A stretch of DNA of 64,000 bases. Origin: Pelagomonas calceolata. Its lineage: Eukaryota. A program made the translations under genes and the position numbers. The notes under the pieces were generated by a model that was not told where the DNA came from, ran no database searches, and was given only the letters and a program-made list of their open reading frames with translations. The stretch spans positions 3,038,001-3,102,000 of the forward strand of contig CAKKNE010000003.1 of the NCBI GenBank assembly GCA_918797485.1, in the 5' to 3' direction. Below are positions 6,907 through 9,449 of this stretch, piece by piece (position 1 is the first letter of the stretch; the number at the start of each line of letters is the position of its first letter).

Positions 6907-8216
6907 CTAGGCGCGCGCCACGAGGTCGTCCAGCGCCGCCGCGACGTCGCTCTCCCTTAATTCGGGCGCGGCGGCGCAGGGCAGCGCGCGCGGCGGCCCC
7001 CGCGCGCCGGCGAGGCCCACGGCGCCGAGGAGCGCGTCGACCTCGCGCGGCGTCAGGCCCCGCGCGGCGCCGACGGGCAGGTCGCCCAGGGCCAGCGGGC
7101 CGAGCCGCACGCGGTGGAGCGCGGTCACTTTTAAATCGGCGCGCGCCGCGAGCCGGCGGATCTGGCGGTTGCGGCCCTCGGCGATGGTGACCTCGAGCGT
7201 CGCCTGCGTCGTCGTCTTTGTACTGGCGCAGCACCTCGGACGCCATCGACGCGACGCGGGCCCAACGCCACGCCATCGACGCGCGGCCGGTTGAAGGAAA
7301 GGACGGACGCCGCCTCGATACCGCGGTCGCGTCGCGCCTCAGGACCGCGACGTCGGCCGGGGCCGTGCGGACGGCCTCTCGCGTATGCAGCGTGACGTCG
7401 TCGAGCGGCGTCGCCAGCGACGCGAGCGCGGCGTCCGTGACGTCGCCCGCCACGTCGAGCACGTAGGTCTTGCTGCAGGTTCCGGCCGCGACGAGCCGCT
7501 TCGCGAGGCCGCCGTCGTCCGTGAACAGCAGCAGGCCCGTCGTGGCCTTGTCGAGGCGGCCGACGGGGCCGAGCCTGTGGAGCGCCCATCGTTTTTCGAA
7601 CTTTGCATAGTCCCGCGGGTGCCAGGGCGGGGCTTCACGATCGCCGATGTCTACTCGACAGGCGTCGAGTTCCAGGTGCGTCGCGGCGATGGCGACTTTT
7701 GCCGTCGAGCCTTACGCTGTCGCCGCGATCCCGTGAAGGCACCTCACGTTTTGACGCGGGCCCGCGCGGCGGAAACCCCGGCGGCAGGACGTCGAAGACC
7801 GTCGACGCGGTCTCGTCGCGCTGCGTCACGCAGCCGGCGGGCCTGCGTGTTTGCACTCGTCGCCTTCACGCCGTCGAGCAGACGCTGCGTTCAAACTTGT
7901 GCAACGCAAAGTAAAAGTGGCGCCGCCGCGCGAACGTCTCGCGCCGCTTCTGCGCCGGCGCCTCGCCGTGCCACGGCCGCGCGCACCGCCCGGACCGCGC
8001 GCTCCTCGCGATGTGGTGCACCTGCTGCGCGCTCAGGCCGGTGAGCGTCGCGAGCCGGCGCGTCGTGTCCTTCGACGGGTACGGCACGAGGCTTCGCTTG
8101 ATTCTCGGGTCGCACAGGAGGTCGCGCGCGTGGCGCTTTGCTGCTTGCTGGCGTCGTTTTTTGCGGCGTCTCAGGTAGTAGGCGAGCACTGCTGCTGCTG
8201 CTAAGAAGGTGAGCAC
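6907..8216 (-). CDS. RsuA/RluB/E/F-family pseudouridine synthase. Introns 7843-7896, 7575-7767 (GC donor) and 7204-7321; start uncertain.
   Basis: Spliced product reads YFALHK|PAGCVTQ...VFDVLPPGFPP|LGPVGRLDKATTGLLLFTDDG...KTY...|ATLEVTIAEGRNRQIRR...LHRVRLGPL. No in-frame ATG was found in the first exon. Confidence 0.85.
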
Positions 8217-8848
8217 TGCATTTTGCTTGAGGTGGGGGGACGCCAGCTTGCTTTTTTGGTGGATCCGGTCGCACCAGGATTTTGGCAGGAATGTGAATGT
8301 GATGCGTCAGGCTGTTTACTTTTTGGTGTGTAGCAGTGAGAGCATGCTCTTTGTCTGCTTACTTCACAGGCCGCTAGGGAGGGAGCCCCTTGGGTTTTCT
8401 AAGAGGGCAACGAGAAGCTTCCAACCCCCACGGACACGGCTCTGTGCATTTCCCACCCCGCGGCCCGGGCCGAGGCCGCGCCGACGACGAGCGAGCCGCG
8501 GACCACGCGGTCGGAATTTCTCGCCCGCGATACGCCTCCGACGCGCTGCGGTGGACGAGGGTGGCGGGGTTTCAGGGGTCGGTCGGGGTGTTGTTGTATA
8601 AACGCGGGTCAGTCGGACCTTGCGTATGTTGGAAGGGAGTATGGGGCAACAGGCTTCGCGAAGCATGGCTCTGAGCTGCCTCGGGTGGCTTTCCGAGGTC
8701 TGACGATGTCGCGGGCGCGGCTGTGGGGCGGGCAACACAAGCCGTGTTAACTCACGGGTTTTCCTTTGCTTTCCTACTAGTCCATCATTTTTGTCCTCTT
8801 GATCCCTCCAGATGTCGGTGAATGCTCGCAGACATCGGTTGAACATGT

Positions 8849-8950
8849 GCTTGGGTGGTCTAGTTGGTTATGACGTCCTACCTAGTGCTAAACTGGGTAC
8901 GTCCTTGCTTCACACGCAGAAGGTCGCGAGTTCGAGTCTCGCCTCGAGTA
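8849..8950 (+). tRNA. tRNA-Val(CAC) with a non-canonical 28-nt intron at 28/29 (8878-8905)
   Basis: Acceptor stem GCTTGGG/CTCGAGT+A. D-arm GTCT-AGTTGGTTA-TGAC. The anticodon stem TCTGC/GCAGA forms only after intron removal, with loop TT-CAC-AC. T-arm GCGAG-TTCGAGT-CTCGC. Poly-T terminator follows. Confidence 0.92.
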
Positions 8951-8952
8951 CA

Positions 8953-8967
8953 TTTTTTTTTTTTTTT
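8953..8967 (+). terminator. Pol III poly-T terminator of tRNA-Val
   Basis: T-run immediately after the discriminator base. Confidence 0.8.
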
Positions 8968-9111
8968 CTACCCCCCCTATGCCCTAAGGCGCCGCAACGC
9001 GCTTTTTGGGTCTTTTTTGCAAGAAAAATTTTTATAAAATCCTCTGTTTTGCCCTTCGCCGGCCTCCAAATCCCTGCAAAGTGCAAAGGGGGGGGTGCTG
9101 GCTTCAAAAAT

Positions 9112-9121
9112 AAAAAAAAAA
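9112..9121 (-). terminator. Pol III poly-T terminator of tRNA-Ala
   Basis: A-run on the + strand just downstream of the minus-strand tRNA 3' end. Confidence 0.8.
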
Positions 9122-9122
9122 T

Positions 9123-9242
9123 TGGAGATAATACTGATTTATGCATATTTCGCATATAGAATCGAACTCATGACCTCCCGCATGCTAAGCAGGCGCTTGC
9201 GATTCCGTTGTTGTACGGATCTACCAACTGAGCTATATCCCC
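9123..9242 (-). tRNA. tRNA-Ala(AGC) with two non-canonical introns: 22/23 (9198-9220, 23 nt) and 62/63 (9134-9157, 24 nt)
   Basis: Mature sequence GGGGATA TA GCTC AGTTGGTA G|AGC G CCTGC TT-AGC-AT GCGGG AGGTC ATGAG TTCGATT CT|TAT TATCTCC A: a 73-nt cloverleaf with the G3:U70 Ala identity pair. Confidence 0.92.
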
Positions 9243-9449
9243 AAGGCTGCGAGAAAGACCGAGCTTTGCAATTTAAAGTCTATAATAGAAAAACCCGTTT
9301 TGGGATTGAGGTGCGTGCGTCCGTTTTTTTGCGCCCGTCGCACCGCCTCCGGCCCTCGGCCTCTCGCCGGGGCGAGTCTCCCGCCAGTGCAGCAGCCCCC
9401 GGAACACCACGCGAAGAGGAACCACCCAACAGCAACACCGCAAAAAAAA

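Follow-up and report, generated by a model that had tools for sequence, protein, structure and literature searches.

Genomic context and organization of the two tRNA genes

The locus lies in a 64-kb stretch of Pelagomonas calceolata DNA, which was analysed as a whole and is called here the window. The genes of the window are of eukaryotic nuclear type and include Nup96, Brix, SNF2 helicases, and a kinase with EF hands. Its phenylalanyl-tRNA synthetase (PheRS) has its best named match in Pelagophyceae sp. CCMP2097 (70%). A quick tree of 40 rows, made of 39 of the 120 matches and the window protein, places it beside CCMP2097 and Chrysophaeum (SH-aLRT 99). Judged by these neighbours, the tRNA-Val gene described below is a nuclear gene of a pelagophyte.

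This tRNA-Val(CAC) gene (8849-8950, + strand) carries a 28-nt insert within its anticodon stem, at site 28/29. The 5' exon (8849-8877, +) is 29 nt long, comprises positions 1-28 with 20a, and has the A box inside. The 3' exon (8906-8950, +) comprises positions 29-73, with the anticodon CAC and the B box; the CCA end is not encoded. Between the two, the putative intron (8878-8905, +) is composed of one nucleotide, an 8-bp hairpin with a 5-nt loop (8879-8899), the tetranucleotide CGTC (8900-8903), and two final nucleotides. A preliminary description of the locus had proposed the same succession of one nucleotide, hairpin, four, and two nucleotides, which stands, with a 7 + 7 hairpin, which has to be replaced by the 8-bp hairpin. 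Without 8878-8905, the gene yields a 74-nt canonical cloverleaf that ARAGORN calls tRNA-Val(cac). The acceptor stem of this computed cloverleaf contains the three G:U pairs that the preliminary description had raised as a caveat, a concern weakened by the fact that all three are unchanged in L032, an ortholog from a metagenome (see below). A T15 run (8953-8967, +), also found in L032, follows the gene and is likely its Pol III terminator. A 7-nt direct repeat (8873-8879 and 8899-8905, +) lies at both junctions and forms a possible slippage substrate. An inverted repeat of 6 bp, its arms separated by 14 nt, is located directly upstream of the gene (8811-8836) and is identical in L032 despite differing adjacent bases.

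The neighbouring tRNA-Ala(AGC) gene (9242-9123, - strand) harbors two inserts. Its exon 1 (9221-9242, -; positions 1-22) is followed by a 23-nt intron at 22/23 (9198-9220, -), with a layout of 1 + 5-bp hairpin + 4 + 2 and two G:U pairs in the central helix. Exon 2 (9158-9197, -; positions 23-62) is separated from exon 3 (9123-9133, -; positions 63-73) by a 24-nt intron at 62/63 (9134-9157, -), which displays a layout of 1 + 6-bp hairpin + 4 + 2 and four Watson-Crick central pairs. Removal of both inserts restores a canonical cloverleaf, called Ala(agc) by ARAGORN. A T10 run starting from 9121 (9112-9121, -) is the likely Pol III terminator. The two genes converge at a distance of 172 bp, and each has a poly-T run (T15 from 8953 and T10 from 9121), as had been described earlier; the geometry of the Val insert, 1 + hairpin + 4 + 2, is indeed shared by both Ala introns, at 22/23 and 62/63. 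The A box spans positions 8-19 and the B box positions 52-62, and all three introns are located outside both boxes. An A+T-rich, TATA-like stretch (9272-9289, -) is found ~30-45 nt upstream of the Ala gene, and no similar stretch was seen upstream of the Val gene. In five reading frames of the window, GTG makes up 75 of the 205 Val codons, and GCC or GCT 139 of the 338 Ala codons.

Detection of the genes

Standard tools perform poorly at this locus. Intron-blind ARAGORN and an Rfam gathering scan gave no hit in the whole 64-kb window, and intron-aware ARAGORN miscalled the Val gene as a tRNA-Thr and missed the Ala gene; it follows that pelagophyte tRNA sets are being missed. The genes are recovered by a blind search using the intron layout. 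Starting from 234 T runs (four T or more), 1,015 single and 2,840 double excisions having this layout were tried and gave seven hits, all of them at the Val and Ala genes, including the exact Ala intron pair. A single-excision scan of the whole window without terminator filter returned five hits among 7,950 candidates, three of which are at the Val gene; it missed the Ala gene because two excisions are required there. The other two hits, near 6.3-6.4 kb, fall in GC-rich coding DNA and were treated as false positives. Four scans of viral contigs and one of prokaryote genomes returned nothing.

Position of the Val junctions

The Val junctions were fixed without using the bulge-helix-bulge (BHB) motif, since they were set by comparison with intron-less homologs. 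A metagenome scan with a D-arm pattern covered 9 of 64 parts and 120 of an estimated 890 stretches; among the matches listed (at least 120 loci), 16 are intron-less Val genes sharing the anticodon arm with the Val gene. A total of 815 trial excisions, 18-37 nt in length, were ranked by their distance to these 16 intron-less homologs. Excision of 8878-8905 comes out best and is the only one of the 815 at distance 1, the mismatch being the wobble base. A spliceosomal intron was rejected, as the insert starts and ends with CT.

Most of the D-arm matches listed are archaeal-type or intron-less Val genes, with one ortholog of the window gene among them, L032. Some (L026, L103, L107, L070, L018, L010) are archaeal-type tRNA-Val genes with insertions 3' of the anticodon, at the pattern match. 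Others (L029, L033, L040, L050, L060, L004, L071) belong to dense arrays of 13-34 eukaryote-type tRNA genes in 2-4 kb, with anticodons such as AGC, AGT, AGG, and AAC, in a partly shared order; nearly all genes of these arrays are intron-less but tRNA-Tyr.

The predicted BHB motif: geometry, chance, and folding

In register (2,2), four out of four central pairs are formed in all four inserts tested (Val of the window, Val of L032, and the two of Ala). The predicted splice sites fall behind base 2 of each of two 3-nt bulges, associated with a 4-bp central helix. In the Val precursor, one bulge is made of exon bases 27 and 28 and the first intron base, and the other of the last two intron bases and exon base 29. 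The exon strand of the helix is GACG (8872-8875, +; positions 23-26), whose perfect pairing with CGTC, pointed out in the preliminary description, is reproduced by computation as four Watson-Crick pairs; this match is partly automatic, given the palindromic nature of GACGTC and the fact that CGTC directly repeats exon positions 25-28 as well. The intron-side helix h' closing the 5' bulge is of 8 bp in Val, 5 bp in Ala 22/23, 6 bp in Ala 62/63, and 4 bp in L032. The outer exon helix h has one pair, a G:U, in Val, two pairs in Ala 22/23, and none in Ala 62/63. With only 0-2 outer pairs, the motif departs from a strict hBHBh' and is classed as relaxed HBh'/BHL. The introns, at 28/29, 22/23, and 62/63, are also away from the canonical eukaryotic position, 37/38.

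Such an arrangement is rarely produced by chance. A full central helix together with a closing hairpin of at least 3 bp was obtained in 0.08%, 0.10%, and 0.14% of 200,000 shuffles of the three window inserts, and the same geometry in 0.06% of the shuffles of the L032 insert. When the whole precursor is folded, the pairing probability of the central helix is only ~0.56 in Val and 0.43 in Ala 62/63, and 0.01-0.02 in Ala 22/23, values that speak against the proposed motif.

Orthologs and relatives

L032 is syntenic with the window and aligns to 7296-8977 (1.7 kb) at 92%. Its Val exons are identical to those of the window over 74/74 positions, 29/29 in the 5' exon and 45/45 in the 3' exon. Identity of the upstream flank amounts to 88/100 and 167/200 (exons versus 167/200, Fisher p=3e-5), and that of a wider upstream region to 625/699 (p=6e-4 versus the exons). 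At the same site, L032 harbors a different insert of 22 nt, with a 4-bp hairpin, the same CGTC followed by two bases, and the same geometry.

In the marine run X11, one contig across the Val gene exhibits three substitutions and nine gaps, all inside the intron. The X11 intron, rebuilt by coordinates, is 19 nt long, with a 4-bp hairpin, a 4-nt loop, and the same last six bases, and is of the L032 type. Only 3 of 10 upstream variants of X11 match L032 in the alignment, and X11 is therefore probably another haplotype than L032. As the L032 and X11 versions are related, the sample holds only two independent hairpin types, of 28 nt and of 22/19 nt. A second X11 contig shows 14 substitutions in the 172-nt spacer versus none in 95 gene bases (p=0.003), a comparison counting substitutions only, with 12 of 13 gap letters unlisted. 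Contigs of X12 (organism B), at a depth of ~2, are identical to the window over both genes; they may come from the same organism and were not counted as independent. At the Ala gene, the match of X11 and X15 contigs to the window stops at 9182 or 9185, close to the anticodon loop, and the contigs then continue unmatched until ~9345 (9182-9347). In these environmental relatives, the Ala gene may differ in its anticodon or its set of introns, or its flank may be shorter.

As far as these sequences go, the layout is kept across Val orthologs while the intron sequence changes, in a small sample with two hairpin types. The combination of invariant exons, drifting flanks, and a swapped hairpin with kept ends is as predicted by selection for a spliced tRNA. 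The initial identification of a BHB-type intron at 28/29 of a pelagophyte tRNA-Val(CAC) is thus sustained by the unique best excision, the canonical cloverleaf, and the layout kept in orthologs. Its further contention, that the introns point to a general system rather than to a gene in decay, also agrees with the sequence comparisons: exons identical at 74/74 positions versus 167/200 upstream, an intron swapped with its geometry kept, and a blind search with hits at the two genes alone.

Proposed splicing of the Val intron

Since relatives carry a different insert with the same shape at the same site, the Val insert is likely a working intron. Sequence and modelled folding lead to the prediction that it is, with high probability, excised by the alga's endonuclease for tRNA splicing, which would recognize the shape of the RNA through the relaxed BHB motif. 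By analogy, and with the same high confidence, the feature is expected to function as ectopic BHB introns do in red algae (e.g., Cyanidioschyzon) and archaea. Transcription by Pol III would be directed by the internal A and B boxes, both intact, and would run to the T stretch. Reading the RNA shape and not the distance from the tRNA body, the endonuclease would then cut after the second base of each bulge, at 8877/8878 and 8905/8906, and a ligase would join the two halves, as in Cyanidioschyzon merolae. The hairpin would be free to change.

Possible intron turnover, transcripts, and alternative explanations

The L032 intron and its 3' exon form a 20-nt tandem repeat with 18/20 identical positions, and the L032 hairpin matches the mature tRNA, in its anticodon arm, better than 2,000 of 2,000 shuffles. 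As the repeat includes the two terminal intron bases, the unit was probably copied from a gene already having an intron. These features suggest that the L032 intron is a tandem copy of an old intron end and the anticodon arm, which hints at how introns get replaced. The L032 layout would result if replication slippage across the 7-nt junction repeat were succeeded by a duplication reaching into the anticodon arm, with a direction of change that may be either way; because GACGTC is palindromic, a copied arm would restore the central helix. The window Val hairpin and the Ala inserts are unlike the mature tRNA, 1,129-2,000 of 2,000 shuffles scoring as well, and a duplication origin is unsupported for them.

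Transcripts were sought in four raw polyA runs from one sample, of which 6-12% of each run was sampled and 57 reads were aligned; read strand was judged from a neighbouring + strand gene. Reads on the coding strand cover the Ala gene at a depth of 2-5. Their 5' ends fall close to the start of the gene, and they keep both introns, without joints. These unspliced transcripts pass the T10 run into the spacer, toward and antisense to the Val 3' flank (8989-9242). Since they extend past the terminator, they are likely rare read-through molecules caught via A-tracts. In the Val gene, the raw polyA runs give zero coverage over the 5' exon and over most of the intron, and a single Val-strand fragment (run X22) starts near 8902, too far along to bear on the junction. 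A spliced form was encountered in none of eight runs, namely the raw polyA runs, whose reads do not cover the Val junction, and contigs of four more; stretches uncovered in RNA contigs were left out as evidence. The Ala reads show transcription, not splicing, and count mildly against the proposed splicing. PolyA libraries of this kind rarely sample mature tRNA.

That Ala RNA is observed only unspliced would be expected if both genes were dead copies whose unspliced inserts remained from slippage or from small tandem duplications, with the decoding performed by intron-less Val and Ala genes elsewhere. The L032 tandem repeat could arise without function, the likeness of its hairpin to the mature tRNA is of the kind that duplication leaves, and the repetition of exon 25-28 by CGTC means that duplication alone could yield the Val central helix. 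This explanation is nonetheless unlikely: the exons are invariant despite flanks that diverge by 12-16% and an exchanged intron, and the Ala inserts and the window Val hairpin share the layout without likeness to the mature tRNA. Furthermore, past the helix each of the four inserts ends in precisely two additional bases, and these would not come from simply duplicating a gene without an intron.

If the Val insert is a spliced intron, the cut might still be shifted in register, removing 26 or 27 nt and leaving an extended anticodon stem, or giving mixed products. Both Val alleles have two registers with four pairs, exon base 27 and intron base 2 compete for one partner (0.37 versus 0.56 in Val), the shifted form accounts for a considerable fraction of the folded ensemble (end pair, 0.37-0.48), and the 26-nt excision 8879-8904 passes ARAGORN. 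Such a shift is nevertheless very improbable, given that the shifted Val conformer is 2.2-2.6 kcal/mol worse than the intended one (2.6 in one comparison), that the extra bases occur in 0/16 intron-less homologs among the matches listed, and that register (2,2) is the only one giving four pairs in the Ala introns.

tRNA genes are common integration targets, and the 7-nt direct repeat at both Val junctions in the window could be read as the target duplication of a mobile element or virus. Such a footprint has hardly any likelihood, as deletion between the repeats leaves two bases too many versus 16/16 intron-less homologs among the matches listed, L032, with another first intron base, has the repeat in reduced form, and the insert is only 19-28 nt long with no coding content. 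Just as implausible is a precursor that functions without splicing, its extra hairpin being part of a tRNA-like Pol III RNA: unspliced Ala RNA exists and the acceptor stem and T arm are retained in the minimum-energy fold of the precursor, but the anticodon stem is broken in that fold, and what all four inserts keep is the spacing of the splice sites, for which an RNA left unspliced would have no use.

With the Val insert taken as an excised intron, a wider proposal can be put forward tentatively, and with rather less than even confidence: pelagophyte nuclei may possess archaeal-style, position-free introns across much of their tRNA set, overlooked by routine annotation and renewed within a species complex by slippage that copies the gene's own arm beside a palindromic exon stretch. 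Were this true, intron renewal could be watched in living ocean populations.

Relation to known systems

In recent reviews, as far as their available portions go, nuclear tRNA introns of non-canonical type figure as rare exceptions, found in red algae and nucleomorphs. Such introns have been used as a marker of red-algal descent (PMC13578239, in part), and arm insertions in eukaryotic tRNA genes have mostly been presumed to be pseudogenes (PMC4090602, in part). No such tRNA intron was found reported for pelagophytes or any stramenopile nucleus in the main text of the literature searched, and the available portions of PMC8450103, PMC12168002, PMC12530127, PMC13728533, and PMC8975779 hold nothing on pelagophyte tRNA introns. 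Within this literature, as far as the accessible text extends, this kind of intron has been described so far only for archaea, red algae, and the cryptophyte nucleomorph. A stramenopile host nucleus with such introns would point to independent relaxation of the endonuclease or to inheritance via the red endosymbiont. The exchanged intron alleles, with one visible copy of an anticodon arm, provide a rare handle on tRNA intron origin and turnover.

The closest resemblance in nuclear genes is documented, in the available part of its account, for the red alga C. merolae, in which 27 nuclear tRNA genes contain 42 introns, of which 25 are away from 37/38, with processing demonstrated by RT-PCR (PMC3728597). 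As in the window, introns lie outside 37/38, there may be two per gene, the motifs are of the HBh' type, T runs serve as terminators, and the genes are missed by standard searches; the lengths, 11-69 nt, are similar to those of the pelagophyte introns (PMC3728597). The sites listed in that portion are the D-stem, D-loop, variable arm, T-stem, T-loop, and 37/38, with none in the anticodon stem (PMC3728597). The host here is a stramenopile and not a red alga. Moreover, C. merolae introns often interrupt the A or B box, whereas all three window introns avoid the boxes; splicing, shown by RT-PCR in C. merolae, is predicted here from sequence; and an exchange of introns between populations, present here, is absent from the C. 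merolae account in its available part (PMC3728597).

Non-canonical introns have also been reported in Chondrus crispus and in the Guillardia theta nucleomorph (PMC13578239, PMC4090602, PMC3978253, PMC4033280, each in part). According to the portions available, both possess D- and T-arm introns, with several per gene, and nucleomorphs also have anticodon stem-loop positions that are non-canonical (PMC4090602, PMC3978253, PMC13578239). These are red-algal nuclei or their remnants, as described there, whereas the pelagophyte introns are found in the host nucleus of a secondary-plastid lineage. Many G. theta introns are described in these portions as lacking a defined BHB, down to 3 nt in length, in contrast with the exact spacing found here in 3/3 introns (PMC4090602, PMC3978253, PMC13578239).

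The archaeal hBHBh'/HBh' introns of Thermoproteales and Asgard share, in the parts of the reports available, the 4-bp helix with two 3-nt bulges, free position, free internal sequence, and repeated gain and turnover (PMC4090602, PMC4033280, bioRxiv 10.64898/2026.10.13.758758), repeated intron gains having been described in Asgard archaea (bioRxiv 10.64898/2026.10.13.758758). Archaeal positions include 22/23, 25/26, and 29/30; 28/29 and 62/63 are absent from this partial, open-ended list. The archaeal genes differ from the eukaryotic Pol III genes described here, in which the CCA is not encoded. The routes of gain differ too: intron transposition between genes or independent gain in the available archaeal accounts, and, as suggested here, copying of the gene's own anticodon arm. 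Set against these systems, the pelagophyte introns are new in their lineage, in occupying a site of the anticodon stem within a host nucleus, and in having their content exchanged among close relatives.
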